A stretch of DNA of 64,000 nucleotides from Desulfatiglandales bacterium (GTDB lineage Bacteria > Desulfobacterota > DSM-4660 > Desulfatiglandales > Desulfatiglandaceae), in contig OY762721.1 in the NCBI GenBank assembly GCA_963666345.1, forward strand, positions 288,001-352,000. Reading direction: 5' to 3'. Of this stretch, positions 1-30,935 are shown one piece after another (position 1 is the first letter of the stretch; each line of letters begins with the position of its first letter). The translations under genes were made by a program, and so were the position numbers. The notes beneath the pieces are model-generated. The model had not been told where the DNA came from. It was given only the letters and a program-made list of their open reading frames with translations, and made no database searches.

Positions 1-423
1 GAACCCTTTGATTTCCGGGTATACAGGCTGGCAAAAAAGATCGCCGCCGGTGCCGATTTTGTTCAGACCCAGTGCATATACAATATGGACAAATTCAGGG
101 AATTCATGAAAAGGGTCGTTGACATGGGGCTTCATGAGAAGTGCTTCATACTTGCCGGTGTCACCCCCATGAAAAGCGTAGGTATGGCCCGTTATATGGC
201 AAAACAGGTACCAGGCATGGACGTGCCCTCTTCTCTCATAAAAAGGCTTCAGGGGGCTGGAAAGGGTAAAGTGGCGGAGGAGGGAATACAATTCGCCATA
301 GAGCAGATAAATGAGTTCAAGGAGATGGAAGGAATAGCAGGGGTTCACCTGATGGCCATAGAATGGGAGCACCGGGTACCTGAAATCGCCGAAAGGGCGG
401 GTATGCTGCCAAGGCCTCAGTAG
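1..423 (+). CDS. metF: Methylenetetrahydrofolate reductase, 5'-truncated by window edge
   Basis: Frame +1 is open from base 1 (EPFDFRVYRLAKKIAAGADFVQTQCIYNMDK...GVHLMAIEW). It is clearly paralogous to 11737..12666 (DPFEIRVPRLAKKVAAGVEFIQTQCIYN...FHIMAIEW). Confidence 0.92.
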   Translation, partial: EPFDFRVYRLAKKIAAGADFVQTQCIYNMDKFREFMKRVVDMGLHEKCFILAGVTPMKSVGMARYMAKQVPGMDVPSSLIKRLQGAGKGKVAEEGIQFAIEQINEFKEMEGIAGVHLMAIEWEHRVPEIAERAGMLPRPQ

Positions 424-974: not shown

Positions 975-2945
975 ATGAATAAAAAGGCCAAAGACGGCGG
1001 GACCCGCGCGGCGACTTTCCCTGCCTCGGAAGTGAACATCCACAAGCCGACCATCTGTTTTGCAATCGTCGGCGGTGGAAAGGAGTGCGCCCTGCTCCTG
1101 CAGAACCTTTACCCGGACGGATTTTCCAGATTAAACATGGAACTGATCGCAATAGCCGACCGGCAAAAGGATGCACCGGGTTACGCATTTGCCGAAAAAT
1201 CCGGTTTATCGGTTTTTACGGATTATAGGCGATTATTTCAGATTAAAGGCCTGAATCTGATCGTGGAATTGACCGGTTCCGATCCGGTCGCGAAAGAGAT
1301 ATACGGAACCAAACCTGATAATATATCTTTCATAGACCACAGCCTGGCTCACCTCATATTTTCTTCCATATTCAGTGAATCCCCGGACAAACTACTTGAC
1401 AGGATATCCATGGATATCTGCATGAAGAGAAAGGAAAAGACCCAAACCGTCCTTGATTCCCTTCCCTATCGCGTAATGGTAGTTAACAGGGATATGACCA
1501 TAAGCATGGTCAACCATACCTTTCTCAGGGAGAAAAATCTTACCTGGGAAGAGGCCATAGGCAAATATTGCTACCAGGTAAGGTACGGACTCAAAAGACC
1601 CTGCTGGCAAAGCGGCATGACCTGCTACCTAAAAGAGGTAAAGGAGAAGGGTGAGATCGTAAGCTCCATACACGAATACCGGGATGAAAAGGGTGAGCAG
1701 CGTTTCGATGTGATCACCGCATCGGCCATACTGGATGATACCGGGAAAATCACCCAGCTCCTTGAGGCCTCAAGGGATGTCACGAAGAGGATAAAGCTTG
1801 AGAAAGACGCCCAGAAATCGAACGTATTTCTGCAGAATGTCATTCAGAGCACGGTAGACGGAATAGTAGTGGTTGATACCAGAGGTTATGTCCTTCTTTT
1901 CAACGAGGGCATGGAAAGGCTTACCGGATATACGGCGGAGGAGATAACCGCAAAAGGTCACGTAAGTTATTTCTATGACATCGACGTGGCCAGGGAAAAC
2001 ATGAAAAAGATGCGCAGTTCCAGGCATGGACCCGTAGGCAAACTTAACCCCATATCCATGTCCGTAACAACAAAACAGGGGGAAGAAATTCCGGTTACCC
2101 TCTCCGCCTCCGTCATAACCATAGATGGAAAGGAGGTGGGAAGTGTCGGTGTGTTCACCGACATGCGTGAAGTCCTGAAGATGCGCAAGGACCTTGAAGA
2201 GGCCCACCTCCAACTGGTGCAATCCGAAAAGATCGCCTCAGTGGGAAAGATGGCGGCAGGAGTCGCCCATGAAATAAACAACCCACTTTCAGGAATCCTT
2301 TTATACGCGGAACTTTTGAAGGAAAATCTGGTCCATAACCAGCAGCACATGAGCGATATACAGGAGATAATCGATCAGACCCTGAGGTGCAAGAAGATAG
2401 TCTCCGAACTTCTGGAGTTCAGTCGTCATTCGGTTGGAAAGGTTTCATCCTTCAGCCTGAAAAAGCTTATAACCAAGTGCATGGACCTGCTCATAAATCA
2501 GGCCATTTTTCACGACATAGACGTAACAACCGACATTGACGGCGACATGCCCGACATAGTCGGGGACATGGGACAGCTTCAACAGGTCTTTACAAATCTT
2601 TTCATAAATGCGGCCGATGCCATGCATGGCAAGGGGAGGCTTGACATTCACGCCTCGTACAATCATGAAAAGGGTTCCTTCAGGGTACTGGTCGCAGACA
2701 CCGGTCCCGGCATACCTGTCCGGGTCAGAGACAAGATCTTCGACATATTCTTTACGACCAAACCCACTGGAAAGGGAACAGGTCTGGGCCTGAGCATATC
2801 TCAGAACATCATCAAGCTTCATGGCGGAACTATTTCCGCGCAATGCCCGCCAGAAGGAGGCACTACCTTTGTGATCGAGATACCGAGGGAATACATGGAG
2901 CCGTTTGCCGATGAAGAGGTATTTATAGGGATGGAAGGACCATGA
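975..2945 (+). CDS. Sensor histidine kinase: N-terminal Rossmann-like domain, 2 PAS, HisKA, HATPase
   Basis: AIVGGG...IAIAD...IVELTG N-terminus; PAS repeats; H-box [11 protein letters not shown]-box [26 protein letters not shown]. Confidence 0.92.
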
Positions 2946-4438
2946 ATGAAAAGACAGCCGTACTGGTGGTAGATGATGAAAGGTCGATTAGGGAAGGATG
3001 CCGCCGCCTTTTGACTGGAAGAGGCTTTTCCGTTGATACCGCTGAAAACGGACGGGTGGCCCTGGAGATACTTTCAAAAGCCCGCGTGGATATCATGCTC
3101 CTTGACCTTAAGATGCCTGTCATGGGAGGAGAAGAGTTACTGGGCATAGTCCGGAACAGCCACCCCCATATCCCGGTCATAATAATAACGGGACACGGAA
3201 CGGTTGATACGGCGGTTGAATGCATGAAAAACGGGGCCTATGATTTCATAACAAAGCCCTTTGAGGTCGACCAGTTTCTTCTTACCATAAACAGGGCTGC
3301 CGAAAAAAAACGCCTTGAACAGAGGGCAAGGCTCTTTGAAGAGGAAAACATAAAGAATCTATATGACATCACACTAGAAAAGAGTCGCCTCAGGACGATC
3401 ATCAACTGCATGGCAAACGGAGTAATGGTAACCAATCGCAATCTTGAGGTGGTCCTTCACAATCCGGCGCTCATGAGGCTGATGGAAATCCCGGAACAAA
3501 CCAGGACACCCGTTCCTATAAGCAAGATAATTGACAGCAAGTCTCTCATAGAGACTATAAGACAGATTCAAAACGGCGAAACCGGCCAGAGTGAGTTTAT
3601 CGCCCAGGAGATTCGGGTGGGGTCAAACATCCTGAGGGCGATTTCGGCGCCCGCTTTCGGGGTTGACCGGCATGTCTTTTTGAGTGTGGTAGGCGCGGTC
3701 ACCGTACTTGAGGACATTACGGCCTTCAAACAGCTCGATTTGATGAAGACGAACTTTGTCAACATGGTTGCACATGAACTCAGAAGCCCTCTGGTATCGA
3801 TAAGGCAGCTCAACAGCGTACTATGCGAGGGCCTGGCCGGGGAACTGGGTCTGAAGCAGAAAGACTATGTGGAAAGGGGTATAAAAAAGATCGATGTATT
3901 GCTGGAACTGATAAACGACCTGCTTGATGTCGCCAGGATCGAGGCGGGAAAGGTCGTGCAGCACAGGGTGCCGACCGATCTGCTCTCAATCATGGAAAAC
4001 ACGATTTCCCTCATGGAACAGCATGCCGCAGAAAAGCAAATAAAGATAATCCTTGAGTGCGGCGACATACGGCCTATCCAGGCGGATCCAAAGAACATGG
4101 AGGAGCTGTTCACCAATCTTCTCAGTAATGCCGTCAACTACTCCCCGGGAGGTGGTGAAATACGAGTCTCGGCCAAAGGACACGCCGGGTACGTGCAGAT
4201 AATGGTCGAGGACACCGGCATCGGAATACCGGTGGAAGAACTTCCCAAGATTTTCGATCAGTTTTACCGAGTAAAACACCCAAGTACACGCCAGGTAATA
4301 GGTACGGGTCTCGGGCTCTCGATCGTAAAGGGCATAGTCGAGGCCCACCATGGGAAGATAGAAGTGGAAAGTGTCATCAACAAGGGGACCTCATTTAAGA
4401 TTCTTCTGCCCTTAACAGCTGAAACGGTCGATCAATGA
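2942..4438 (+). CDS. Hybrid protein: receiver-PAS-histidine kinase
   Basis: REC (LVVDDE, LLDLKMP, ITGHG, KPF); H-box AHELRSPL; NLLSNAVNY; GTGLGL; 4-bp overlap with the upstream gene. Confidence 0.92.
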   Translation: MNEKTAVLVVDDERSIREGCRRLLTGRGFSVDTAENGRVALEILSKARVDIMLLDLKMPVMGGEELLGIVRNSHPHIPVIIITGHGTVDTAVECMKNGAYDFITKPFEVDQFLLTINRAAEKKRLEQRARLFEEENIKNLYDITLEKSRLRTIINCMANGVMVTNRNLEVVLHNPALMRLMEIPEQTRTPVPISKIIDSKSLIETIRQIQNGETGQSEFIAQEIRVGSNILRAISAPAFGVDRHVFLSVVGAVTVLEDITAFKQLDLMKTNFVNMVAHELRSPLVSIRQLNSVLCEGLAGELGLKQKDYVERGIKKIDVLLELINDLLDVARIEAGKVVQHRVPTDLLSIMENTISLMEQHAAEKQIKIILECGDIRPIQADPKNMEELFTNLLSNAVNYSPGGGEIRVSAKGHAGYVQIMVEDTGIGIPVEELPKIFDQFYRVKHPSTRQVIGTGLGLSIVKGIVEAHHGKIEVESVINKGTSFKILLPLTAETVDQ

Positions 4439-5796
4439 CGCACGATATGCAAGACAGACAGGTTCTGGTTATTGACGATGAATCCGTTGTCAGAAAGGCG
4501 ATAAGCAGGGCACTTCAAAACAAGGGCATGATGGTGAAGACCGCTAAAAGCGGCCACGATGCAGTGGATCTGCTGAAAGGCGCCCCGTTTGACCTCATTC
4601 TGCTCGATATCCGAATGCCGGACATGGACGGAATAAGCCTTTTAAAAATAATCCGCTCCAGTTATCCCAAAACCCCGGTTATCATGATAACCGGTTATCC
4701 CAGCATTGACTCGGCCGTTCGGTGCGTCAGGCTCGGCGCCCTTGACTACCTTGTCAAACCGTTCCGGCTCGATGATCTGGATGCGGCCCTTGCCAAGGGC
4801 CTCACCCCGGAGCGACCCGATGCGATCCGGGGAAAAAGCCCGCACGCAGTGCCGATCGACTCCAAAAGGAACCTCATTATCGGCGAAAGTCGCCCAATGG
4901 CAGATCTTTATGAAAAGATATTGAAGGTGGCTCCCACTGACAGCACGGTACTTATCACGGGTGAGAGCGGTACCGGAAAGGAACTGGTAGCAAGGGCCAT
5001 ACATGTCAACAGTCTCAGAAAAAACAGGGAATTCGTTGCGGTTGACTGCTCCTCACTTGTGGAAAGCCTTCTTGAAAGCGAGCTGTTCGGTCATGTAAAG
5101 GGTTCATTTACAGGGGCTCATAATACCAAGCATGGCTTTTTTGAACTTGCCAACCAGGGCACATTCTTTTTTGACGAGATATCCAACCTGAGCCTCAATA
5201 TCCAGGCAAAACTCCTGAGGGTGGTTCAGGAAAGGGAATTCATGAAGGTGGGAGGCCACAAGAGGATAAGACTGGATATCCGAATAATTTCCGCATCCAA
5301 TAAAAACCTTGAACAGTCGATTCAAACAGGTGATTTCAGAGAAGACCTCTTTTACCGTATCAGCGTTGTCCCGATTCATCTGCCCCCCTTAAGACAGAGG
5401 AAGGCGGATATCCCGATCCTTACTCAACATTTCCTCAACAGATTCAGCCGCAAGATAAAGCGCCCCAAGCCTGAAATAACTCCCGACGCAATGGAGATAC
5501 TGATGGAGTATTCCTGGCCCGGTAATGTAAGGGAGCTGGAACATACGATCGAGAGGATACTCATACTTGAAGACACCGACATAATACGCCCGAGTGATCT
5601 TCCCTCCTTCATATCTCAACGCATGGGCGAATTTCAGATGTATTCGGAAGAACCTTTCAGCCTGGAAGAGCTTGAAAAAAAATATATACGTTTCGTGCTG
5701 AGAAGGACAAAAGGGAAAAAGGCAAAAGCGGCACAGGTGCTCGGCATCAACCGCAAGACCCTTGGCCTCAAGATCAAAAAATACGACCTCTACTGA
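4435..5796 (+). CDS. Sigma-54-dependent response regulator (NtrC family: REC-AAA+-Fis HTH)
   Basis: GESGTGKE Walker A; ESELFGHVKGSFTGA; FFDEI; WPGNVRELE; C-terminal AAQVLGINRKTL HTH. Confidence 0.95.
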   Translation: MTHDMQDRQVLVIDDESVVRKAISRALQNKGMMVKTAKSGHDAVDLLKGAPFDLILLDIRMPDMDGISLLKIIRSSYPKTPVIMITGYPSIDSAVRCVRLGALDYLVKPFRLDDLDAALAKGLTPERPDAIRGKSPHAVPIDSKRNLIIGESRPMADLYEKILKVAPTDSTVLITGESGTGKELVARAIHVNSLRKNREFVAVDCSSLVESLLESELFGHVKGSFTGAHNTKHGFFELANQGTFFFDEISNLSLNIQAKLLRVVQEREFMKVGGHKRIRLDIRIISASNKNLEQSIQTGDFREDLFYRISVVPIHLPPLRQRKADIPILTQHFLNRFSRKIKRPKPEITPDAMEILMEYSWPGNVRELEHTIERILILEDTDIIRPSDLPSFISQRMGEFQMYSEEPFSLEELEKKYIRFVLRRTKGKKAKAAQVLGINRKTLGLKIKKYDLY

Positions 5797-5820
5797 GGTG
5801 CAAAACCGCCAGTGCTACGA

Positions 5821-5867
5821 GTAATATTGTCACATTTGAGATATTTTATCGCCTGTGATAATTTCTC
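5821..5867. promoter_or_regulatory. Three 13-bp pseudo-palindromic boxes at 17-bp period; putative enhancer (UAS)
   Basis: GTAATATTGTCAC (5821), GAGATATTTTATC (5838) and GTGATAATTTCTC (5855), about 220-270 bp upstream of a -24/-12 promoter. Confidence 0.5.
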
Positions 5868-6085
5868 TTTATTTTTCAGGCAGTTATGCCAAAACATAGT
5901 TAAGGCACCGTTACAAATTGCCCCGAAAATTTCCTGCCATGGCCTGTTATGCCGGCTGGACCATATCCCTTCCGGTTTTCTCTCAAGCCGGGTCAACAAA
6001 TATTTCAAGGGGATATTCACCTCTTTTTGGTTAAAATGCCTTTCACCGCCCAAAATAAATCGGATCTTTCATGAGCCATAATTCA

Positions 6086-6102
6086 AAGGTACGAATATTG
6101 CT
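6086..6102 (+). promoter_or_regulatory. Sigma-54 (-24/-12) promoter
   Basis: aaGGTACGAATATTGCt: GG at 6088-89 and GC at 6100-01 with exactly 10 nt between; close to the TGGCACG-N4-TTGC consensus; next to a sigma-54 activator gene. Confidence 0.75.
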
Positions 6103-6287
6103 GTGTAATCTCTTAACATGTTATTTCCAATCCTGATTAGATGTCCATCCGGAAACCGGATTACAGGCATCGGCAAATTTCCGGACTGAACCTGGAACCT
6201 GGACATGTGACAACAAACGATATTTTGCCGTGTTGTCTTTACGATCCGCCGTAATCGACCCGTCCGATTGGGGGAAAGCAGTCGACC

Positions 6288-6662
6288 ATGGGCATTTCAG
6301 AATCGATATTAATCGCGGAACCTGTTGAGGGAATCTCAAGCGAACTGGACCGGTTTCTGAGTGAGACAGGTCTCAGCAGCGTGAGGGCGAAATCGCTTAA
6401 AGAGACAATACTCTGCCTCCAGGCTCAGAGATTTGATGCACTAATCCTTGATTCATCCCTTCTTGAACAGGACTGCGGATTCATATCCATAATCAAGGGG
6501 ATAGAAGAACAACTCCCCATCATAATCTGCGCCGACGTAAACACGCCTCAGCTTGAAAGCGATATACGTCAGCAGGGTATTTTCTACTACCACATAAAGT
6601 CCTTTGGAATCCAGGAACTGGAAATGGCAATTTCCAACGCCATCAAGAGGCAATCCTGTTGA
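6288..6662 (+). CDS. Stand-alone atypical receiver-domain protein
   Basis: REC-like pattern (ILIAE, ALILD, PIIIC, YYHIKSF) but lacks the DD acidic pocket and the KP motif. Confidence 0.7.
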   Translation: MGISESILIAEPVEGISSELDRFLSETGLSSVRAKSLKETILCLQAQRFDALILDSSLLEQDCGFISIIKGIEEQLPIIICADVNTPQLESDIRQQGIFYYHIKSFGIQELEMAISNAIKRQSC

Positions 6663-6679
6663 CTCAGGAGGTCGACCGA

Positions 6680-7555
6680 ATGTCTATCAGTGAAAAGATC
6701 GAAGCTGGAAAATATGTTCTTCTAGGAGAATTTGAACCACCTAAAGGTCCTAATTTTTCGGGCCTTTTACGTAACGCCAATCACGTCAAGGGGCGGCTTG
6801 ACGCCCTTGTAATTCCTGAGATGGCAAATGCGGTTGTCAAGGCCAGTTCCCTGGGCGGATGCGCGTTTCTGGCAAGACACGGCTTTAATGCCGTGTTCCA
6901 GGCCTCCTGCCGCGACAGAAACAGACTGGCCCTGCAGGCCGATCTGCTGGCCGCTTCCGCCCTCGGCGTATCAGATATGATGGCGGTTAACGGCGAGGAT
7001 ATAAGATTCGGAGATCAACCCCAGGCAAGATCGGTATATGACGTTGATCTCATGCAGCTTATTGAAACCATGGCCGGTCTTAGAAAAGGAAAGGATATGG
7101 CCGGGATAGAACTGAACAGCACCCCGCGCTTCTCAATAGGCGCCACGATAAATGCGGGCGCTATGGGCGGGGCCCTGGACATAGAACTTGAGAACCTTGA
7201 GAAGATGATAGATCAAGGTGTTGAATTTGTTATCACAACTCCCGTATTCGACATGCACCGCTTTAATCAGTTTGCAAGGAGAATAGCAGGAATGAGCATC
7301 TCGGTCATCCCAACGGTCCTCTTGTTGAAATCAGCGGGAATGGCCCGCTATATCGACAGGAATATAAAGAACATCTCCATCCCCTCAGACCTAATAAGAG
7401 ACATTCAAAAATCGCCTGATAAACTAAAGCAATGCATTAAGATTACTGCTGATCTTATTGTAAAATTTAAGGAAAAAGGAATGGCAGGAGTCATGATATC
7501 AACCATGGGGTGGGAGGACAGGCTGCCCCTGATCCTTGATGAGGCCAGACTCTGA
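6680..7555 (+). CDS. MetF-like protein with degenerate active site
   Basis: EFEPPKG, CRDRNRLALQADLLAA, FGDQPQARSVYDVD and GVEFVITTP align with MetF. SD AGGAGG precedes ATG 6680. Confidence 0.85.
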   Translation: MSISEKIEAGKYVLLGEFEPPKGPNFSGLLRNANHVKGRLDALVIPEMANAVVKASSLGGCAFLARHGFNAVFQASCRDRNRLALQADLLAASALGVSDMMAVNGEDIRFGDQPQARSVYDVDLMQLIETMAGLRKGKDMAGIELNSTPRFSIGATINAGAMGGALDIELENLEKMIDQGVEFVITTPVFDMHRFNQFARRIAGMSISVIPTVLLLKSAGMARYIDRNIKNISIPSDLIRDIQKSPDKLKQCIKITADLIVKFKEKGMAGVMISTMGWEDRLPLILDEARL

Positions 7556-7580
7556 TAATCAAAAAAGGCGAGGTGTTTTC

Positions 7581-10500
7581 ATGACGGCATCAGGTAAGGC
7601 TCCAAGCGGTTCGGTCATGGTCGTCGGTGCAGGGATAACCGGTATGCAGGCGGCCCTGGACCTGGCTAGTTCCGGCTACTATGTTCATCTGGTGGAGAAC
7701 TCATCAAGCATAGGAGGAATGATGGCCAGGCTGGACAAGACCTTCCCTACCAACGACTGCGCCATGTGAATAATCTCGCCCAAACTGGTCGAGGTCGGCC
7801 GGCACCTGAACATAAACATAATCACCAACAGCTCAATAGAATCCATAAGCGGTGAGCCTGGAGATTTTTCAGTCGCCCTCCTTAACCGCCCGAGGTATGT
7901 CGACACGGAAAAATGTACCGGTTGCGGGGAATGCGCCAAGTATTGTCCCATATCCGTTCAAAATCTCTACAATCTCGGCCTTGACCGCAGGAATGCAACC
8001 TATATGGAATATCCTCAGGCAATTCCGCTTGCATTCGCAATAGACGATGAGTCATGCATCGGCTGCGGTCTCTGCGAAAAGATGTGCATTGCAGGAGCCA
8101 TCAACTATGAAGACAGGGCGAGGACCTCGATCCTTGACGTGGGCGCCTTGATTCTATGTCCCGGAAGCAAGGGGTTTGATCCTTCCGGGCTGGACATATA
8201 TGGCTACGGCAGGCACGCTAACGTTGTTACAAGCGAGGAGTTCGAAAGGATTCTGAGCGCCTCAGGGCCATATAGAGGCAACCTGATGAGGCCGCTTGAC
8301 AGGGAGGCGCCTCAAAAAATCGCCTGGATCCAGTGTGTGGGCTCAAGAGACACGAATCGATGCGACAAGGGATACTGCTCCTCCGTATGCTGCATGTATG
8401 CCATCAAAGAGGCCATGATAGCCAAAGAGCACTGCCAGGGCCGGCTGGAATGCAAGATCTTCAACATGGATATGAGGACATTTGGAAAGGATTATGAAAG
8501 ATATCTTCTCAGGGCCAGGGATGAAGCGGGAATAAAATTTATCAAATCAAGGATCCATACCATAGATGAGATAAGGGAATCCGGGGATCTTTCCATAACA
8601 TACTCGGATGAGCTGGGACAGCTGCTCACCGAGACCTTTAACATGGTCGTCCTGTCGGTGGGGCTAGAGATACCCCCATCCGTAATAGAGCTTGCAGGGC
8701 GTATAGGGGTGGAAACCGACTCATACGGCTTCGCAAAATCATCTCCCCTTGATCCGGTTGAAAGCTCAAGGCCGGGTATTTTTCTGGCCGGAGTCTTTCA
8801 GGGCCCCAAGGATATCCCCGCCTCCGTTACAGAGGCAAGCGCCGCGGCCTGTTCTGTTTCCACCATTCTGTCCGATTCAAGGGGCAAGGACGCAAAAGAT
8901 TTTCACGTTCCGGCCGAAAAGGACGTGTCTCTGGAAGAGCCTAGGATAGGGGTCTTTGTCTGTAACTGCGGAATAAACATAGCAGGGGTGGTGGATGTGC
9001 CGACGGTGACGGCCTATGCCGCACGCCTGCCTTTTGTGACCTTTGCCGATCACAATCTATTTACCTGCTCTCAGGATACACAGGACAAGATAAGAGAGGT
9101 TATAAGGAAAAAGGGCCTCAACCGGGTAGTGGTTGCCTCATGTTCTCCAAGGACGCACGAGGCGCTTTTTCAGGAGACCCTGCAGGCCTGCGGCCTCAAT
9201 AAATACCTTTTCGAGATGGCCAACATAAGGGATCAGGACTCATGGGTGCATGCAAACGATCCGGAAGCGGCCACGGAAAAGGCGAAAGATCTTGTCAGGA
9301 TGGCCGTGGCACGGGCGGGGCTTCTCAAACCTCTTAAGGAAAAACGGATACCCATCAACAAACGGGCACTGGTGATAGGTGGAGGCGTATCCGGGATGAA
9401 CAGCGCCCTGGGGCTTGCCGATCAGGGCTTTGACGTCGTTCTTGTCGAAAAGGAGGTCGGGCTGGGGGGACTGTCATCAGAGCTAATCAGGACTATTGAA
9501 GGTAAAGACATTCAAAGATACCTTCTTGAGACGATCGAAAAAGTGAGCAGCCATGAAAGGATTCAGGTGCTGCTTGGATCCCTTATCGTCGGCTTCACCG
9601 GATTCAAGGGCAACTTTACCACAGAGGTAATTGTAGGCCCAGGCATGTATGAACGCAAGATTGACCATGGAGTGGCCATACTGGCCACGGGCGCAAAAGA
9701 ATACCGGCCCACGGAGTATTTTTACGGTCAGGACCCTCATGTCCTAACCCAGATAGAACTGGGGCAGAGGCTCGACCTGAAAGGGGCTGATGATCTCAAA
9801 AACGTGGTAATGATCCAGTGCGTCGGATCAAGGAACAGGGAAAACCCAATATGTTCCCGTGTGTGCTGTCAAAGCGCCGTAAAAAACGCGATCCTAATAA
9901 AGGAACTCAACCCTCAAACCAACGTGTACATACTTTATCGTGACATGCGCACCTACGGCATGATGGAGAGATACTATTCCGAGGCAAGACAGAGGGGTAT
10001 AATATTTGTCCGCTTTTCAGAGGAGCGCCCTCCCCTTGTCGAACAGGGTGAAGAAGGACTGTCGGTCACCTTCAGGGACCATATAATAGATATGGACTTA
10101 AGGATCAATGCCGATCTGCTGGTATTGAGCGCCGGCATGGTACCTGAAAACACCCGGGAGCTGGCCTCGATAATGAAATTGCCCAGGAACGGAGAAGGAT
10201 ACTTTATTGAGGCCCATGCGAAGCTTCGTCCGGTGGATCTGGCAAATGAAGGCATATTCATATGCGGGACAGCACACAGTCCGAAACTGATATCCGAATC
10301 GATTACCCAGGCAAAGGCTGCCGCATCAAGGGCCGCGACCTTCTTATCACAGCCGGAGATAGTGCTTTCCGCCGTGACCGCGAAGGTAGATCCGGACATG
10401 TGCGCCTCATGCCTCATATGCGTAAGGTCCTGTCCTTACGGGGTGCCCAGGATAAACCAGGAGGGGGTAAGCGAAATAGACGAGGCCCTGTGTCACGGAT

Positions 10501-10607
10501 GCGGCATATGTGCTGCGGAATGTCCTGCAAAGGCAATAGAACTGAGATGGTACCGGGACGATCAGATTATGAGCAAACTGGACGCACTGTTCGAAGGAGT
10601 CATCTGA
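7581..10607 (+). CDS. hdrA: HdrA-like flavo-iron-sulfur protein, 1008 aa, selenocysteine at codon 63 (TGA 7767-7769)
   Basis: ORFs 7536..7769 and 8004..10607 are in one frame with only a single TGA between them. Readthrough gives LDKTFPTNDCAM-U-IISPKLVEVGRH...CTGCGEC, matching the HdrA DCxxC motif. SD GAGGTG before ATG 7581; SECIS-like hairpin downstream. Confidence 0.92.
7785..7802 (+). promoter_or_regulatory. Bacterial SECIS element (hdrA)
   Basis: CUGGUCG-AGGU-CGGCCGG: 7-bp stem including two G-U pairs, G-containing apical loop starting 22 nt after the UGA. Confidence 0.8.
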
Positions 10608-11038
10608 TGAAGGATAACGAACCGATAATAGTGGCATTCTGCTGCAATTTCTGAGGTTACACCGCCGCGGACCTGGCAGGTTCGATGCGCATTCATTACC
10701 CAGGCTCAATCAGGATAATAAGGGTTCCCTGTACCGGCAAGGTCGACCTGATCCATATACTGAGGGCCTTTGAAAAGGGTGCAGACGGTGTCTATGTGGT
10801 AGGCTGTCTGGAAGGAGACTGCCGCTTTGAAAACGGAAACCTGAGGGCGAAACTGAGGGTCAGGCAGGCGAAAAAGATCCTGGACAGCATAGGAATAGGC
10901 GGGGAACGGGTACAGATGTTCAATCTCTCATCAGGGGAAGGACCGAGGTTCGCGGAGATTGCAACTGAAATGACGCAGAAGGTGAAAGAGCTGGGTCCGA
11001 ATCCGGTCAAGAGGGTAAACACGGATAGGGCGGCGTAG
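10607..11038 (+). CDS. mvhD: MvhD-type [2Fe-2S] subunit, 143 aa, selenocysteine at codon 16 (TGA 10652-10654)
   Basis: ATG overlaps the hdrA stop (TGATG). MKDNEPIIVAFCCNF-U-GYTAADLAGSMR...RVPCTGKV...GCLEGDCRFENGN is the MvhD signature, and the TGA falls at a Cys position. Confidence 0.92.
10668..10684 (+). promoter_or_regulatory. Bacterial SECIS element (mvhD)
   Basis: CGGACCU-GGC-AGGUUCG: 7-bp stem, G-initiated loop starting 20 nt after the UGA. Confidence 0.75.
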
Positions 11039-11071
11039 GATTTACAATCCAAAAAAGCGAGGTAACCCTTC

Positions 11072-11740
11072 ATGATAGTCGCGGGAAAAAAGCCGATAGA
11101 GGAAATCATCGAGCAGGTGGAGCCATTCAGCTCAATCCTTGTGGCCGGATGCAACGAATGTGTGACAGTGTGTGAGGCCGGAGGGAAAAAGGAGGTGGGG
11201 GTGATCGCTTCCGCCCTCAGAATGTATTTCATGAACCAGGGCAAAGAGGTCAAAATTGATGAGATAACCTTTGAGCGCCAATGTGACCGTGAATTCCTGG
11301 AAGAGCTGAGGGACCGTGCAGACAGGTATGACGCGATCCTGTCCCTTGCATGCGGTGCCGGAGTACAGTTCATGGCCGAGACATACCCTTCCCTGCCGGT
11401 ATTTCCGGGAGTAAACACCTCTTTCATCGGGGTGACGGAACAGAGGGGATTGTGGACCGAGCGCTGCCAGGGATGCGGAGACTGCATCCTGGGCCGGACA
11501 GCCGGGATCTGCCCTATATCCAGATGCGCCAAGAGGCTGCTCAACGGCCCGTGCGGCGGATCCACAAAAGGAAAATGCGAAATCAACAAGGAACTCGACT
11601 GTGCATGGCAGCTTATTATCGAAAGGCTCAAGGAACTGGGCCGGCTTGAGGATTATGAAAAGATAATTCCGATAAAGGACTGGTCCTGTGAAAGGGCGGG
11701 CGGTCCGAGAAAAGTCGTCAGGGAGGATGTAATACTATGA
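11072..11740 (+). CDS. metV: MTHFR small Fe-S/Zn subunit MetV
   Basis: GCNECVTVCEAGG, RQC, ACGAG, CQGCGDC...GICPISRCAKRLLNGPCGG...CAW; overlaps the metF start. Confidence 0.92.
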   Translation: MIVAGKKPIEEIIEQVEPFSSILVAGCNECVTVCEAGGKKEVGVIASALRMYFMNQGKEVKIDEITFERQCDREFLEELRDRADRYDAILSLACGAGVQFMAETYPSLPVFPGVNTSFIGVTEQRGLWTERCQGCGDCILGRTAGICPISRCAKRLLNGPCGGSTKGKCEINKELDCAWQLIIERLKELGRLEDYEKIIPIKDWSCERAGGPRKVVREDVIL

Positions 11741-12666
11741 GCGGCACACCCAGCAGACTTGAAAAGATTCTCACCCAAGGCCACCTCGCAGTCACCTCTG
11801 AATGCGGTCCGCCCAGGGGCAGCGATCCGGAGGCGATTACAAAAAAGGCGGATATGATAAAGGCCCATGTGGATGCGATAAACATCACGGATAATCAGAC
11901 CTCGGTGACAAGGCTCTGCAGTCTGGCAGCCTGCATTCATCTCAAGTTGAAGGGGGTTGAACCGGTCCTTCAGATGGTTACCCGCGACAGGAATCGAATA
12001 GCACTTCAAAGCGATATACTGGGGGCATCCTCTTTTGACATACACAACATATTATGCCTGTCGGGAGATCACCAGCAATTCGGGGACAACCCGAAAGCTC
12101 AGAACGTATTTGACCTTGATTCCATTCACCTGATCCAGACGGTAAAACAGATGAGAGATGAAGGAAAATTTTTGGGCGGAGACGACATCAACAGGCCACC
12201 TAAGATGTTCATAGGTGCCGCCGCCAATCCCTTTGCAGACCCTTTTGAAATAAGGGTCCCCAGGCTTGCCAAAAAGGTCGCAGCTGGCGTCGAGTTCATA
12301 CAGACCCAGTGTATCTACAACCTTGATCGCTTCGAGGAGTGGATGAAACAGGCAAGAGACAGGGGGCTTCACAAAAAGGTCTTCATACTGGCGGGACTCA
12401 CCCCCCTGAAGTCCGCCGGTATGGCCAAGTATATGAGAAACAGGGTGCCTGGCATGGATGTGCCGGAGGAGGTCGTAAAAAGGATGAGCGGCGTGCCGAA
12501 AGAAGAACAGGCCCGGGAAGGAATAAAGATATGCGTGGAGTCGATCCAAAGGCTGAAAGAGGTAGAGGGGGTGAGCGGCTTTCACATAATGGCCATAGAA
12601 TGGGAGGAGATGGTCCCGGAGATAGTTGAAAAAGGGGGGCTTTATCCGAGACCCGAGGCCGGATAA
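11737..12666 (+). CDS. metF: Methylenetetrahydrofolate reductase large subunit
   Basis: ECGPPRG, NITDNQ, RDRNRIALQSD, LSGDH, IQTQCIYN, FHIMAIEW. Confidence 0.95.
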   Translation: MSGTPSRLEKILTQGHLAVTSECGPPRGSDPEAITKKADMIKAHVDAINITDNQTSVTRLCSLAACIHLKLKGVEPVLQMVTRDRNRIALQSDILGASSFDIHNILCLSGDHQQFGDNPKAQNVFDLDSIHLIQTVKQMRDEGKFLGGDDINRPPKMFIGAAANPFADPFEIRVPRLAKKVAAGVEFIQTQCIYNLDRFEEWMKQARDRGLHKKVFILAGLTPLKSAGMAKYMRNRVPGMDVPEEVVKRMSGVPKEEQAREGIKICVESIQRLKEVEGVSGFHIMAIEWEEMVPEIVEKGGLYPRPEAG

Positions 12667-12827
12667 TATAGCAGGGGCCCTTTGGACCTCCTTGCTCTGA
12701 TTTTCTCACTCATTTTCAACAGTAAAAGTCAATTATTTAGCTGAATTTAGTTTTCAAAATTGTTATAATAAATTTTATGGGGTAAATCGTTGCAACTAGC
12801 TGATATTCATTTACAGGAGGTTACATT

Positions 12828-13208
12828 ATGTCCAGGAAATATATACTCGTAGTTGATGATGACCCTGATCTCGTTGAAACAGTTGCCATGATGCTGGAGA
12901 GTAAAGATTGTGAAGTAGGCCGCGCATATGACGGGGTTGAAGCCGAGCAATCTATAAAGGAGAGACGCCCCGACCTGATAGTCTTAGACGTAATGATGCC
13001 CAGAAAGGACGGTTATGTGCTCTGCTCGGAGTTAAAGGCGGATGAACAGACCAGGAATATCCCTATTGTGCTGTTGACCGCCGTGGGTGAGGCGGTCCCT
13101 ACGACCACCTATACACACGCGGACGGCATGTCCACGGAGGCCGACGATTACATCGCAAAACCTATTGATACTGAAGGCATGTGGGCCGTTGTAAGCAATC
13201 TGCTTTGA
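12828..13208 (+). CDS. Single-domain response regulator
   Basis: LVVDDD, VLDVMMP, LLTA, IAKPID; SD AGGAGG. Confidence 0.92.
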   Translation: MSRKYILVVDDDPDLVETVAMMLESKDCEVGRAYDGVEAEQSIKERRPDLIVLDVMMPRKDGYVLCSELKADEQTRNIPIVLLTAVGEAVPTTTYTHADGMSTEADDYIAKPIDTEGMWAVVSNLL

Positions 13209-13226
13209 TTAAATATCAGGCACCTG

Positions 13227-14240
13227 ATGACCCTCAATACAAGACTCGGCGGATTCAAGATCTTGAAACAGGTGGGCTGGATTTCGTTCAGGGCGTCTGC
13301 GGGACAAAAGGCTGCTGCTGCGAAATTCTCCCACCTCATGGCAAAAGAGAAAATAAACATTTCATTCCTTAACTGCGCTTACCGGGGGCATTGCTGGAAC
13401 CTGGACGCAGTGGTCGATGCTGCCCAGGCACGGTCTCTATCCGCCAAAGTGGAAAAAATAGTTGGGGTCGCGAATCAAAAAAGCAACAGGAGTTCGATCC
13501 TTTCCCTTTTTCCCCACAAAAGCAATCCCGAAATAACTGCGGAACTCATAAGACTGCTTGTCGACAAATCGATCCAACCCGCCTCAATCGCACAATCGAG
13601 TTCATCAATATCCGTGGTCGTCAAAGAGAGTTTAATTGAAACGGTTACTAAGGCCCTTTTCAGTTCCTTCGACTTCAGCACCTACAGGACACCGGAGGAC
13701 TGGAAACTGGCCCAAAAGGGAAAGGAGCGGCTATTTAAAGAGGTCGTTGCATCCTATCAGGAAAAAAAACCCAAGGTCTACAGCCTCGATCTGCATGAGA
13801 ATCAGGTCCTGTTCAGACTCGACCTTTACCGGGGTCGGGTTCATCAGTTCTGCCTTCTCCTGGAAAGGCTGGCACGGGAAGAAATCGGCATTCCCTTCTT
13901 TATATCAAGCCCTTTTGAGAAAAAGGAGGGCTGGAAGGTCTTTCTCTGCCTCCCGGGACCGGATCATAATTACCGGCGGATGTTCAAGGACATGTCCTGT
14001 CTGAATCAGATTACTTCAAGTGTGCCGGTATCGGTGTTTTCAATGACAGGACCTCATTTCGGTGACCGCTACGGCATAGCAAGTGAGATATTTCTATCCA
14101 TTGAGGATTCAGGTAGCGATCTGATGGGGCTGTGCTGCTCAATCGCCACGGTAACGGGCCTGCTACCCCAAAAACAGGTCCGGAAGGCGGCAGGCTCCCT
14201 TCAAAGACACTTTGATATCCCCGCGGTCGTTATAAAATAG
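13227..14240 (+). CDS. Tandem ACT-domain protein (aspartokinase regulatory-domain-like, no kinase domain)
   Basis: SIAQSSSSISVVV and VSVFSMTGPHFGDRYGIASEIF...CCSIATVTGLL...AAGSLQRHF resemble aspartokinase C-terminal ACT repeats. No KFGG motif. Confidence 0.6.
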   Translation: MTLNTRLGGFKILKQVGWISFRASAGQKAAAAKFSHLMAKEKINISFLNCAYRGHCWNLDAVVDAAQARSLSAKVEKIVGVANQKSNRSSILSLFPHKSNPEITAELIRLLVDKSIQPASIAQSSSSISVVVKESLIETVTKALFSSFDFSTYRTPEDWKLAQKGKERLFKEVVASYQEKKPKVYSLDLHENQVLFRLDLYRGRVHQFCLLLERLAREEIGIPFFISSPFEKKEGWKVFLCLPGPDHNYRRMFKDMSCLNQITSSVPVSVFSMTGPHFGDRYGIASEIFLSIEDSGSDLMGLCCSIATVTGLLPQKQVRKAAGSLQRHFDIPAVVIK

Positions 14241-14256
14241 TCCGGCCCCGGAAGGT

Positions 14257-15330
14257 TCATCCCCTTTCACCGTAATTTTTCTCCATCCATTTCAGATAAT
14301 CGCCTGATCGGATAGATTCAACCCACTCCATGTGGTCCAGGTACCAATCGACCGTTGCCTCCATGGCCGTCTTGAATTCGTTTTTCGGTCGCCAGGCAAG
14401 CTCTTCACTTATCTTTGAGGCATCTATGGCATAACGTTTATCATGCCCCGGTCTGTCCGCGACAAATCGAATCAGCCTCCTGCCGGAATGCTCCCCTGTC
14501 CTTCCAAGCCGTCTGTCCATTACGTCGCACAGGGTATGTACTATCTCAAGATTCGTTCTTTCTTCATTCCCTCCGATATTATAGGTCTGGCCGGGCTCTG
14601 CCAGCTCAAACACCCTGAGAAGCGCATCGCAGTGATCAACCACGTACAGCCAGTCTCTGACATTGCTGCCGTCCCCGTAAACCGGCAGAGGTTTTTCTTC
14701 CAGTATATTGAGTATCATCAAGGGGATCAGTTTTTCCGGGAACTGATAGGGACCATAGTTGTTGGAGCAATTGGTTATGACAGCCGGAAGGCCGTAGGTC
14801 CTGTTATAGGCCCGCACAAAATGATCTGATGCGGCCTTTGAGGCGGAATAAGGACTTGAGGGATCATAAGGGGTCTTTTCCGTGAAATAGCCGTCTTGAC
14901 CAAGACTTCCGTACACTTCGTCAGTCGATACATGGAGAAACCGGAAGCCTTCTCCCACCTTCCCGTTCTCCCAGGCCCTCCTGGACGATTCAAGCATGCG
15001 GAAGGTCCCGAGCACGTTCGTCTCTACAAACCGGTCAGGTTCATAAATAGACCTGTCAACGTGCGATTCCGCAGCAAGATGAACGACCCCGTCAAAGATT
15101 TCCTCCCGGAACAGGTGATCAAGCGGTTTTTCATCCCTTATATCGCCCCTGATCAGTCTGTGACGACTGGACAGTTCAGGCGAAAGGTCCTCAAAATTGG
15201 CCGGATTACCAGCATAGGTCAGGCAGTCAAAACTAACGATACTCCATTGTTTCTTCTGCTCGAGTACGTAACGGACGAAATTGGATCCTATAAAACCGGC
15301 GGCACCGGTGACAAGAAGTCTTTTCTGCAT
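14257..15330 (-). CDS. rfbB: dTDP-glucose 4,6-dehydratase
   Basis: VTGAAGFIGSNF, HLAAESHVDRSI, HVSTDEVYG, YSASK, NNYGPYQFPEKLIP. Confidence 0.97.
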   Translation of the reverse strand: MQKRLLVTGAAGFIGSNFVRYVLEQKKQWSIVSFDCLTYAGNPANFEDLSPELSSRHRLIRGDIRDEKPLDHLFREEIFDGVVHLAAESHVDRSIYEPDRFVETNVLGTFRMLESSRRAWENGKVGEGFRFLHVSTDEVYGSLGQDGYFTEKTPYDPSSPYSASKAASDHFVRAYNRTYGLPAVITNCSNNYGPYQFPEKLIPLMILNILEEKPLPVYGDGSNVRDWLYVVDHCDALLRVFELAEPGQTYNIGGNEERTNLEIVHTLCDVMDRRLGRTGEHSGRRLIRFVADRPGHDKRYAIDASKISEELAWRPKNEFKTAMEATVDWYLDHMEWVESIRSGDYLKWMEKNYGERG

Positions 15331-28235: not shown

Positions 28236-28808
28236 TCAGACCCTCACGCCCAGGGGCAGCATCGTCCTGCCATATACCTCGTTTAGTACCTGCGCCACAG
28301 CTGCATAGATGGCGGAAAAACCGCAGAAGATCCCTTCCCATCCGGCAAGGATCCCTATGACCCTGCTGCCGGTGATGTGGTGAAGGGCAAGCAGCCAGAA
28401 AAGCAGGGACAGAGAAAGGAATATCGTTTGAAGCGCCCTGTTGAGTTTCAAGGTACCGATAAACATGCAAAATGTGAAAAGCCCCCACATGAACAGATAC
28501 CAGCTGAAAGATACGTTGCTCTGTTTGACCTCCCACCATCCCAGATTAGCGAAAACCAGCAGGAATACGAGTGTCATCCAGAAAAGGCCGAACGAACAAA
28601 AGGCCGTCGTACCGAAGGTATTTCCTTTTCTGAATTCCATTACACCGGCGATTATCTGTGCAAAGCCTCCATAGAATATCCCCATTGCGAGTATCATGGT
28701 ATCAAGGGGATAGAAACCGGCATTGTGGATATTGAGAAGCACGGTGGTCATTCCGAATCCCATAAGCCCCAGCGGGGCAGGATTTGACAGCGAATCTGAT
28801 TGGGCCAT
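28236..28808 (-). CDS. satP: Acetate uptake transporter (GPR1/FUN34/YaaH family)
   Basis: [18 protein letters not shown] signature; GNTFGTTAF; six TM helices. Confidence 0.95.
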
Positions 28809-28892
28809 TAGTTCACCTCCTGATGAGATAGGTACAGAAGCGGACTGCTCTCATTTTCATATGATTTTTCTCAAGTTCAGATCGAGCTGATT

Positions 28893-28929
28893 ATCCCGGC
28901 CCTCCGGTTTTAGTGAGAAGCCGGGATAT
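28893..28929. terminator. Stem-loop between acs and satP
   Basis: TATCCCGGC...GCCGGGATA inverted repeat; no strong U-tract. Confidence 0.4.
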
Positions 28930-28955
28930 TGATTAAAACCGCCTTCCTTGAGCCT

Positions 28956-30935
28956 CTACTGTCTTCCTGATACCAGACTTTCCACTACATCCGGATCCGC
29001 AAGAGTGGAGGTATCACCCAGTTCGTCGATATGACCTTCCGCTATCTTTCTAAGAATTCTCCTCATGATCTTGCCGCTTCTCGTCTTTGGAAGCGCCTCG
29101 GTAAAATGCAGTTTGTCGGGAGAGGCGATCGGACCTATCTCCTTTCTCACATGAGCGACAAGTTTCTTTTTCAGCTCATCGCTGGGCTCATAGCCATTCT
29201 TAAGGGTCACAAAGGCATAAATCCCCTGCCCCTTTATCTCATGAGGAAATCCCACCACCGCGGACTCCGCTACGGCGGCATGGGCCACGAGCGCGCTTTC
29301 TACCTCGGCGGTTCCCATCCTGTGACCCGAAACATTTATGACATCATCCACCCGGCCCATGAGCCAGAAATAACCATCCTCGTCTTTTCTGGCTCCATCC
29401 CCTGAAAAATAGTACCCGGGATAGTCTTCAAAATACTGCTTCTTGAATCGTTCAGGGTCGCCGTAAACCGTACGCATAAATCCCGGCCACGGTTTTTTTA
29501 TGCACAAATGGCCTCCCTCATTAACATCGCATTCGGTACCGTCCTGCCTCAAAATCACCGGTTCAACACCGAAAAACGGCACCGTCGCCGATCCCGGCTT
29601 CATAGGCATTGCCCCTGGAAGTGACGCGATCAGGTGCCCCCCCGTCTCGGTCTGCCACCAGGTATCCACAATGGGACACCTTTCCTTCCCGACAACCTTG
29701 TAATACCACATCCATGCCTCGGGATTGATCGGCTCACCAACGCTGGCAAGGAGCCTGAGACTGCTCAGGTCCCTTTTGTTGACCCACTCATCGCCGTTTC
29801 GCATTATCGCGCGGATTGCGGTCGGTGCCGTATAAAATACATTTACACTGTAACGCTCGACCACCTCCCAGAAACGGTCCGGCTCAGGATAGTTGGGAAC
29901 CCCTTCAAACATCAAAGAGGTTGCCCCCAGGGCTAGCGGCCCATATACGATATAGCTGTGGCCAGTAACCCAGCCGATATCCGCCGTGCACCAGTACACA
30001 TCTTCATCTCTTAAATCAAAGACATATTTCACGGTAAGCATTGTGAAAAGCAGGTACCCGGCCGTTGTGTGAAGTACTCCTTTAGGTTTTCCGGTGCTGC
30101 CGCTGGTGTACAGGATAAAAAGAGGATCCTCGGAATCCATCGGTTCCACTTCACATTTGTGTGAGGCGCCTTTCATAAGCTCATCCCACCAGTAATCCCG
30201 GCCTGATACCATTTCAGTATCCTTGTCGATCCTCCTTACCACAACGCAGTTCTTCACACCTGGACAAGCCTTAAGCGCTGTGTCCGCGTTCTTTTTTGTG
30301 TCGAGGACCCTGCCTGAACGGTACCCGTAGTTGCAGGTGATTATCGTTTCCGCCTTGCAGTCCAGTATCCTGTCCTTCAGGGCATCAGCGCTGAATCCGC
30401 CGAACACCACACTATGGATAGCGCCGATGCGGGCGCATGCGAGCATGGAGATCGACAACTCAGGGATCATTGGCAGATAAATGGACACGCGGTCACCTTT
30501 TTTTACTCCAAGCCCTTTGAGCACATTGGCAAACTTGCAGACCTCCCGGTGAAGCTCCTGATACGTATAAGTGCGTGAATCTTCCAGAGGCTCACCCTGA
30601 AAAATAAGAGCGGCCTTGTTTTTTCTCCATCCCCCAAGGTGGCGGTCAAGGCAGTTATAACAGGCATTAAGCTTGCCCCCTGCAAAATATCGCAGAAAGA
30701 TGTCATCCCTGAAACTGTACTGTTCAACAGGACCGTCCCATTTGACAAACCAGTCGAGATTTTCTTGCGCCATCTCACCCCAGAATCCTTCAGGATCTTC
30801 GATAGACTTCCTGTAAAGGACCTCATACTCTTTCATAGTCTTTACCCGCGACTTGGCCACAAAATCCTGAGGTGGTTCAAATATCCGCTTTTCCGCATAT
30901 ACCGATTCCATCCTGTTCGTAGTTTGTTCGGCCAT
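28956..30935 (-). CDS. acs: Acetyl-CoA synthetase (AMP-forming)
   Basis: [48 protein letters not shown] (contains the acetylatable Lys). Confidence 0.97.

Follow-up and report, generated by a model that had tools for sequence, protein, structure and literature searches.

The Hdr-type methylene-tetrahydrofolate (methylene-THF) reductase of Moorella thermoacetica, MetFV-HdrABC-MvhD, was reportedly described by Mock et al. in 2014, and we know of no settled mechanism for the enzyme of Moorella or Sporomusa. Here we describe a related operon in a 64,000-nucleotide (nt) stretch of DNA from a Desulfatiglandales bacterium (assembly GCA_963666345.1, contig OY762721.1, positions 288,001 to 352,000; hereafter the window), in which genes for a degenerate receiver protein (REC2), a MetF-like protein (MetFL), HdrA2, MvhD2, MetV2 and MetF2 follow one another. 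The operon probably encodes an HdrBC-less, selenocysteine (Sec)-containing variant of the Hdr-type ('type IV' or '6S') methylene-THF reductase, in a Desulfatiglandaceae-type sulfate reducer with a Wood-Ljungdahl pathway. With the Moorella and Sporomusa enzymes it shares a metV gene lying 5' of metF and overlapping it, an MvhD gene in the cluster, and a fused HdrA with two thioredoxin reductase (TrxR)-like FAD domains, an N-terminal-type cluster domain and a C-terminal ferredoxin domain (PMC9430772). It differs from those enzymes in several ways: the cluster has no hdrB or hdrC, HdrA and MvhD are both selenoproteins, the ferredoxin domain inserted in the first half of HdrA2 is intact, extra MetF-like and receiver genes stand 5' of hdrA, the promoter is of the sigma-54/NtrC kind, and the host is a sulfate reducer rather than an acetogen.

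Several other systems resemble the operon in part. Archaeal HdrA (in Hdr-Vhu-Fwd of Methanococcus maripaludis, PDB 9SFI/9T1S, PMC13518236, and in M. thermolithotrophicus, 5ODC) likewise has Sec in C-x-x-U at Cys/Sec197 of the TrxR-like domain, and archaeal VhuD, like MvhD2, has it in the N-terminal cysteine motif, but in the archaeal enzymes single HdrAs form homodimers to which HdrBC and either a hydrogenase or a formate dehydrogenase are attached, whereas HdrA2 would be a single-chain pseudo-dimer linked to MetVF (PMC13518236). Desulfobacterium autotrophicum HRM2, also a deltaproteobacterial sulfate reducer, is rich in HdrA/HdrL paralogues, all with an mvhD gene behind them and several containing Sec, and its HdrL carries a glutamate-synthase-like NAD(P)H module, as do relatives' orthologues of the present operon; no MetF-like/HdrA/MvhD/MetV/MetF operon or tandem arrangement is described in the excerpted account (PMC2702500). 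In 'Candidatus Syntrophoarchaeum' MetFV is joined to HdrA and MvhD with no HdrBC in cis, but this organism is archaeal, probably uses another pterin, and is described in the passage on it without mention of an extra MetF-like subunit (PMC9012536). MetVF of Clostridium ljungdahlii ('2S') shares the MetV/MetF core, and it is reported to form a dimer of heterodimers, which the pairing of MetF2 with MetFL would mimic (PMC8515935, PMC8760232); it differs in having no Hdr/Mvh subunits and in being ferredoxin-dependent and non-bifurcating (PMC8515935). The enzyme type, the fused HdrA, HdrBC-less MetFV-HdrA-MvhD clusters and Sec in the HdrA/MvhD of sulfate reducers are already in print (PMC2702500, PMC9012536). 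A full-text literature search, with most subscription journals outside its range, returned no paper on the extra MetF-like subunit, on tandem Cys/Sec-type clusters with regulators, or on the pair of a receiver (REC3) and an ACT-domain protein encoded downstream.

Gene content and conservation of the operon

A preliminary description of this stretch had proposed the gene set REC-like, metF-like, hdrA(TGA), mvhD(TGA), metV and metF, and its homology to the Moorella-type HdrCBA-MvhD-MetVF. Both proposals were borne out: all six genes lie on the plus strand with domain matches (Table 1), and MetV, MetF, MvhD and the fused double HdrA all have their Moorella-type counterparts. Aligned with MTHFR (methylenetetrahydrofolate reductase) structures, MetF2 retains the Glu, the SGD-motif Asp and the TQ-motif Gln; MetV2 conserves its cysteines and the NGPCGG motif, and MvhD2 scored 189 bits against the VhuD model (cut-off 215). 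The proposed absence of HdrBC holds in cis but does not extend to the genome: no CCG-domain (HdrB/D-type) gene lies in or beside this operon (cluster 2) or a paralogous cluster 1 upstream of it, and all 29 CCG matches of the genome, hdrB/D-like genes among them, lie elsewhere, so that HdrB/D-like supply in trans is possible.

Synteny in Desulfobacterota, suggested at the outset as a check, proved extensive. The full order, HdrA1-MvhD1-MetV1-MetF1 (cluster 1), kinase, receiver-kinase, NtrC, REC2, MetFL, HdrA2, MvhD2, MetV2, MetF2, REC3, ACT, with NtrC and REC2 not in every locus, recurs whole or in large part in 14 loci of relatives from the same family and order. MetFL-HdrA/HdrL is kept in all 14, the run through MvhD-MetV-MetF is seen in 12 (the remaining two are cut short) and REC3-ACT in 11. 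In other families of the phylum MetFL stands directly 5' of HdrA/HdrL-MvhD-MetV-MetF in 13 of 16 loci, so that the MetFL-HdrA/HdrL adjacency is found in 27/27 loci showing the operon. REC3 follows MetF in 11 of the 13 distant operon loci (one exception stops at a contig end) and is 74-91% identical in relatives, above the conservation of the enzyme subunits; together with that of the ACT-domain gene, its conservation suggests that regulation is tied to the enzyme itself. REC2 orthologues are less alike (52-68% identity within the order, 42-45% across the phylum), and the usual N-terminal acidic pair of REC2 reads E-P in the sequence. The Cys-type cluster 1, the absence from HdrA2 of a GltD module that most relatives carry, and the conserved REC3 and ACT genes were absent from the preliminary description.

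The operon type is very common in sediment Desulfobacterota: a phylum-wide sample of 301 genomes gave MetFL-type matches (E 1e-60 or better) in 82. Standard gene callers, as had been anticipated, split HdrA and MvhD at the two UGA codons, and they do so systematically, while annotation treats MetFL as a common MTHFR. The immediate practical benefit is the correct annotation of the two selenoproteins and of a separate MetF-like subfamily, together with a defined purification target.

Selenocysteine codons in HdrA2 and MvhD2

Sec63 of HdrA2 lies in the motif C-A-M-U and is placed by the HMMER alignment on Cys197 of 5odc_A, and MvhD2 has Sec where its paralogue MvhD1 has Cys. The TGA codon is kept in 39/39 HdrA2-type matches at ≥64% identity and in 21 MvhD matches; the paralogues read TGC at this position in HdrA1, and TGC or TGT in Cys-type MvhD (10 matches). 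Each TGA is followed by a hairpin resembling a selenocysteine insertion sequence (SECIS; Table 1). In the HdrA2 hairpin, identity at third codon positions was 0.94-1.00 from +20 to +35 vs 0.29-0.87 at other downstream codons (31 distinct orthologous segments). In that of MvhD2 it was 0.95-1.00 from +17 to +29 and at +35, 0.76 at +32 and 0.33-0.81 elsewhere (21 distinct segments), and the motif was missing in eight of the ten listed Cys-type MvhD paralogues and partly present in two. It is this conservation at synonymous sites, not single-sequence folding, that supports the SECIS elements; covariation does not appear because the stems are invariant. The genome also contains selA, selB, selD and tRNA-Sec, the machinery that the preliminary description had named as a check on its two selenocysteines, and both TGAs can be regarded as established Sec codons short of protein chemistry. 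The selD match (G000:C1:620342-621268) itself has one in-frame TGA, and SelD is probably a selenoprotein too.

Sec had also been put forward as a trait of this variant. Both residues are present, but both positions were already known, as Cys/Sec197 of archaeal HdrA and as the VhuD-type position (PMC13518236). In M. maripaludis residue 197 of HdrA is Sec197, in a Cys-Sec pair between the cluster of the N-terminal domain and the FAD (PMC13518236), and Chadwick et al. describe Cys197 as a ligand given to the N-terminal cluster of the partner protomer (PMC9012536).

Architecture of HdrA2 and its NAD(P)H module

HdrA2 aligned in three pieces to the solved archaeal HdrA (E 6.6e-190). Residues 1 to ~440 comprise a TrxR-like FAD domain with Sec63 and an inserted 2x[4Fe-4S] ferredoxin domain (106-175), with no N-terminal domain and no C-terminal ferredoxin domain, and both halves keep the TrxR-domain cluster motifs (CVGSRD...C...CC) which, read from sequence, correspond to those facing HdrC in the archaeal enzymes. 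The fused two-flavin HdrA, offered earlier as a distinguishing trait, is not new, because the HdrAs of Moorella and Sporomusa are fused doubles as well (PMC9012536, PMC9430772). Chadwick et al. noted that fused HdrAs, including that of the Moorella MetFV-HdrABC-MvhD enzyme, show complementary loss between their halves, and that in HdrA fusions of anaerobic methanotrophic archaea (ANME) the halves stand in reverse order (PMC9012536). According to Kremp et al., a GltD NAD(P)H module interrupts the first half of the Moorella HdrA (1487 aa), and the Sporomusa HdrA (942 aa) is a double TrxR form without GltD (PMC9430772). HdrA2, in which a domain scan found no GltD/NfnB NAD(P)H module and whose ferredoxin domain is intact instead, is nearer in size and layout to the Sporomusa protein, whereas the 1481-aa GltD-bearing form of relatives matches that of Moorella (PMC9430772).

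This module varies among close relatives. An insertion of ~1.3-1.4 kb occurs in an operon HdrA gene in 10 of the 14 relatives' loci, although in one of these (L024) it lies in an extra upstream HdrL and not in the HdrA2 orthologue, and the module is present in 9 of the 13 distant loci with the operon. The 1481-aa HdrA2 orthologue of L026 has Fer4_20 and Pyr_redox_2, a GltD/NfnB-like module, with the Sec codon still present. In a quick tree, its root arbitrary, the HdrA2 of the window is placed beside GltD-less copies from two relatives (SH-aLRT 99), nested in a clade whose members mostly bear GltD. To fit the well-supported branches, GltD must have been gained or lost at least six times overall; the tree suggests that in this HdrA2 the change was a loss. 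Of those two relatives, L024 has an extra GltD-bearing HdrL-MvhD pair between MetFL and HdrA2, and L025 an extra upstream HdrA without GltD. Since the nearest relative of these extra copies in the present genome is encoded at ~2.62 Mb (locus order HdrL-MvhD-HdrA-MvhD), an NAD(P)H-binding partner in trans is conceivable. The coming and going of the NAD(P)H module in close relatives and the intact ferredoxin-binding domain of the GltD-less variant offer testable handles on the coupled partners.

MetFL, a conserved MetF-like subfamily

MetFL had been regarded as a pseudo-MetF, a view that its conservation contradicts. Its AlphaFold2 model (pLDDT 89.8) had a Thermus MTHFR as top Foldseek match (TM ~0.8), and the protein shares 31-35% identity with the genome's three MetFs. 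Orthologues with 58-71% identity occur in about 35 of 60 relatives searched, and at least 120 metagenomic protein clusters match at 64-96% identity, named methylenetetrahydrofolate reductase where the source names them. As 79 columns are invariant in an alignment of 35 sequences, MetFL is not decaying; judged by sequence, it represents a subfamily that is conserved but altered in its active-site signature, and not a pseudogene.

Of the MTHFR active-site residues, which we take to be Glu28, Asp120 and Gln183 of the E. coli enzyme, residues that recur in the mutant names of PDB titles, only the Glu is kept. This N-terminal Glu and the RDRNRLALQ helix are common to MetFL and MetVF-type MetF, whereas N-I-T-D-N-Q-T of the latter reads V-I-P-E-M-A-N-A in MetFL (PEMANAV for TDNQT), S-G-D-H reads G-E-D, and T-Q-C reads T-T-P. 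Within the order, Glu stands in place of the RGD/SGD Asp (E106, invariant in alignment A1) and Thr in place of the TQ Gln (T186, likewise invariant); more distant MetFL-type proteins have P, T or Q at the latter site. The TDNQT motif of MetVF-type MetF presumably contacts the flavin. The most distant MetFL-like genes (37-40% identity; L052, L053 and L058, from distant genomes) keep the T-D motif and have their own MetV-like gene directly 5', and by sequence seem to represent an intermediate subfamily of MetVF instead of the MetFL type found beside HdrA. In Desulfatiglans TRIP_1, six genes are annotated as MTHFR, all with peptides and two of them of 876 nt; none is assigned to MetFL (PMC6849830). 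An 876-nt MTHFR gene there lies directly 5' of NuoG/NuoE/NuoF-like genes, with a second MTHFR gene ~7 kb downstream (PMC6849830), which suggests that the NuoEFG-type ('X type') MetVF cluster, too, may have a short MetF-like gene in front of it.

From the complex whose modeling had been proposed, HdrA with MvhD, MetV, MetF and MetFL, the combination MetV2+MetF2+MetFL was run, and it returned a MetFL-MetF2 contact. MetFL scored an ipSAE of 0.91 (runs 0.91, 0.92, 0.91), as against 0.00 for the best of three controls. In calibration, 116 of 157 solved complexes but only 2 of 215 mismatched pairs attained that mark, counts that hold only roughly here because the alignments were made for the present analysis. 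Contacts agreed to at least 89% between runs and the partner pLDDT was at least 90. MetFL is thus predicted to pair with MetF2, through a pseudo-twofold interface formed by the RDRNR helix, and in the model touches MetF2 only. In a control with MetF2 swapped for an unrelated protein, MetFL scored 0.00 vs the remaining chains, which is not a verdict on MetFL-MetV2 binding. The predicted pairing fits the dimer of heterodimers formed by C. ljungdahlii MetVF (PMC8760232).

Sigma-54 control

The element AGGTACGAATATTGCT at 6087-6102 is two mismatches from TGGCACG-N4-TTGCW. The exact consensus TGGCAC-N5-TTGCW has 0 matches in the window, and two-mismatch sites number 9 vs 6.9 expected, which is chance level taken alone. 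Its support comes from conservation upstream of REC2, not from the single-site match. A GG-N10-GC site with ≤3 mismatches lies 54-202 nt 5' of REC2 in 18/18 distinct loci with REC2 (≤2 mismatches in 11/18), compared with 1/8 loci without REC2, and in control windows from the same loci ≤3 mismatches were found in 152/1530 (9.9%) and ≤2 in 26/1530; the relatives are kin, and the trials are not independent. Each long locus has either all three of NtrC, REC2 and the site (L024-L028, L036) or none of them (L030-L034, L037). With the -24 GG/-12 GC element, an adjoining gene for an NtrC-type enhancer-binding protein and rpoN in the genome, the sigma-54 control claimed in the preliminary description is supported. 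A repeat search of the 494-nt region upstream of REC2 found no convincing activator-binding palindrome.

Proposed mechanism and alternative explanations

The methyl-/methylene-THF couple lies at -200 mV. From homology, MetF2 would interconvert methylene-THF and methyl-THF at its flavin, and HdrA2 would act as a single-chain pseudo-dimer, with Sec63 and the sole inserted ferredoxin domain, which in archaeal HdrA is where ferredoxin binds, contributed by its first half, and with the N-terminal cluster domain and the MvhD docking domain contributed by its second. Such a layout would leave one complete low-potential branch, along which electrons would pass from the N-terminal cluster to Sec63, the inserted ferredoxin domain and ferredoxin. 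MetFL may stand in for the second MetF of a MetVF dimer; the resulting MetV-MetF2-MetFL unit would be asymmetric, in keeping with the asymmetric HdrA and the single MvhD. The complex would most likely couple methyl-/methylene-THF to ferredoxin and a third partner by flavin-based bifurcation or confurcation. That partner might be an HdrB/D-like protein or an HdrL supplied in trans; NAD(P)H acting at a TrxR-like domain and MetFL itself are further candidates. Acetyl-CoA oxidation is the likely setting. The genome has acsB and dsrAB, which make plausible the Wood-Ljungdahl pathway in a sulfate reducer that had been proposed at the outset, and for a Desulfatiglans relative so equipped methyl-THF oxidation is the plausible direction. 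Expression would depend on the adjoining two-component/NtrC/sigma-54 system.

Pull-downs link MetVF, MvhD and HdrA in Sporomusa (PMC9430772, PMC9012536), but several observations weigh against the proposed variant Hdr-type reductase. No third redox partner is encoded in cis, leaving bifurcation without an obvious second acceptor, and MetVF alone uses reduced ferredoxin in C. ljungdahlii (PMC8515935). A stable complex is not assured, because Sporomusa HdrCBA-MvhD did not co-purify with MetVF (PMC9430772). Since MTHFR homodimers are solved, the MetFL-MetF2 score may express likeness rather than binding. The SECIS elements, folded as single sequences, did no better than shuffles (z -0.11 and +0.54). 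With roughly nine double-HdrA/HdrL paralogues and three MetVF clusters in the genome, the main Wood-Ljungdahl flux may run through another cluster.

A different account would start from cluster 1, a TGA-free HdrA1-MvhD1-MetV1-MetF1 set directly upstream (G000:C1:283538-288423; L023:13538-18400; MvhD1 PF02662, MetV1 PF12225, MetF1 PF02219), separated from cluster 2 only by two kinases and the NtrC-type activator gene. Clusters 2 (Sec) and 1 (Cys) might be interchangeable isoenzymes, like Vhu/Vhc, switched by the intervening regulators according to selenium supply. In this genome cluster 1 has Cys at the Sec positions of both HdrA and MvhD, and Sec/Cys switching is known for Methanococcus Vhu/Vhc (PMC13518236) and has been suggested for Hdr/Mvh paralogues of D. 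autotrophicum (PMC2702500). The paralogues, however, are old and non-equivalent (identity 39% for HdrA, 48% for MvhD, 53% for MetV, 60% for MetF): HdrA1 (912 aa) is a double HdrA without the inserted ferredoxin domain, and MetFL and REC2 occur in cluster 2 only. Nor is cluster 1 consistently selenium-free, because the MvhD beside the cluster-1-type MetF is the TGA form in L027, L028, L030 and L037, and the PAS domains of the kinases have no known ligand. We therefore consider interchangeable isoenzymes rather unlikely.

Another account concerns MetFL, which might be no structural partner but a third catalytic site, a flavin or TIM-barrel subunit for NAD(P)H, another pterin-bound C1 unit or another acceptor, that replaces HdrBC and makes the five-protein complex a self-contained bifurcating enzyme. 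The strong purifying selection on MetFL with its own invariant residues, its MTHFR fold, the Glu aligned with the catalytic one, its constant place 5' of HdrA/HdrL and the lack of hdrBC in cis all agree with such a role. Against it, the replacement of TDNQT, of Asp by Glu and of Gln by Thr makes loss of function as likely as a new one, the operon offers MetFL no FeS partner of its own, MetV-like or otherwise, and in the model it contacts MetF2 only; MetFL is also no substitute for the GltD module, because GltD-bearing relatives keep it. A third catalytic site in MetFL seems to us unlikely. A bolder combination, which we hold to be quite unlikely, would make MetFL-HdrA-MvhD-MetV-MetF a self-contained, HdrBC-independent bifurcating or confurcating enzyme widespread in Desulfobacterota, with MetFL as third redox/substrate site or allosteric gate in an obligate asymmetric heterodimer with MetF that matches the single-chain HdrA, and with REC3 controlling the complex post-translationally. 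If true, such a module would explain how complete-oxidizing sulfate reducers dispose of methyl-THF electrons at -200 mV.

That the enzyme is a non-bifurcating, ferredoxin-dependent reductase/dehydrogenase, in which HdrA2-MvhD2 only wires ferredoxin to MetVF or anchors MetVF to a membrane or another partner with no coupling of energy, is improbable: MetVF-type enzymes do use reduced ferredoxin without bifurcation (PMC8515935, PMC9430772), HdrA2 lacks the NAD(P)H module and its inserted ferredoxin domain is intact, and no third partner lies in cis, but two FAD domains and two TrxR-domain cluster motifs kept under selection are costly for a simple wire, most orthologues have the NAD(P)H module and hence three redox sites, and every characterized HdrA complex bifurcates (review PMC5861303).

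Locus layout, paralogues and neighboring genes

Table 1 Features of the locus, in coordinates of the window.
Feature	Position	Strand	Evidence or remark
MetF1 3' end (last gene of cluster 1)	1..423	+	cluster 1 mostly upstream of window
PAS-domain sensor histidine kinase	975..2945	+	PAS, HisKA, HATPase_c; syntenic in 12/14 relatives' loci
Hybrid receiver-histidine kinase	2942..4438	+	Response_reg, HisKA, HATPase_c; syntenic in relatives
NtrC-type sigma-54 enhancer-binding response regulator	4435..5796	+	Sigma54_activat 228 bits, Response_reg, HTH_8
Intergenic region	5797-6287		between NtrC-type gene and REC2
Sigma-54 -24/-12 element AGGTACGAATATTGCT	6087..6102	+	conserved 5' of REC2
REC2, degenerate single-domain receiver	6288..6662	+	PF00072, 31.9 bits vs cut-off 30.2
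MetFL, divergent MTHFR-fold protein, 291 aa	6680..7555	+	PF02219, 82 bits vs cut-off 24
HdrA2, fused double HdrA selenoprotein, 1008 aa	7581..10607	+	in-frame TGA 7767-7769
SECIS-like hairpin CUGGUCG-AGGU-CGGCCGG	7785..7802	+	+18 to +35 after HdrA2 UGA
MvhD2 selenoprotein, 143 aa	10607..11038	+	TGA 10652-10654; PF02662, 167 bits
SECIS-like hairpin CGGACCU-GGC-AGGUUCG	10668..10684	+	+16 to +32 after MvhD2 UGA
MetV2, FeS/Zn subunit of MetVF-type MTHFR	11072..11740	+	PF12225, 132 bits
MetF2, canonical MetVF-type catalytic subunit	11737..12666	+	PF02219, 124 bits
REC3, well-formed single-domain response regulator	12828..13208	+	PF00072, 88 bits
ACT-domain protein	13227..14240	+	ACT_9, ACT_7; syntenic in 11/14 relatives' loci

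MetFL could alternatively start at TTG 6659 (298 aa), but ATG 6680 is the most likely start, because AGGAGG precedes it and nearly all of the 120 listed homologues have 291 aa (the rest 289-305); for HdrA2 the most likely start is ATG 7581. With the best-supported starts, the overlap of several genes in the preliminary description narrows to HdrA2/MvhD2 (1 nt) and MetV2/MetF2 (4 nt, ATGA), the other genes of the operon being separate. Scans for terminators and sigma-70 promoters gave shuffle-level numbers and no clear operon boundary, and Rfam (window 5700-14400, E up to 1) returned no match, neither a riboswitch nor a catalogued SECIS. The ACT-domain protein has weak matches to the regulatory domains of aspartate kinases.

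Elsewhere in the genome, a third MetVF cluster (G000:C1:1218587-1220646; L042:7578-9646) consists of a divergent MvhD-like gene, MetV and MetF3, the last 64% identical to MetF2, with no HdrA. It is followed by three glutamate-synthase-like genes (L042:1588-7568; Glu_synthase and GXGXG domains) and may be another way of wiring MetVF. The double-HdrA or GltD-bearing HdrL paralogues, most of them followed by an MvhD gene and some adjoining CCG-domain (HdrB/D-like) genes, lie on G000:C1, for example at 2618502-2627417, 808556-811555, 750380-753406 and 2819229-2823641, with further loci at 1014819-1019197, 1725208-1728251 and 698196-701271. In the window itself, on the minus strand at 28236-30935, an acetyl-CoA synthetase gene adjoins a gene for a putative acetate channel of the GPR1/FUN34/YaaH type, a pair consistent with acetate use.

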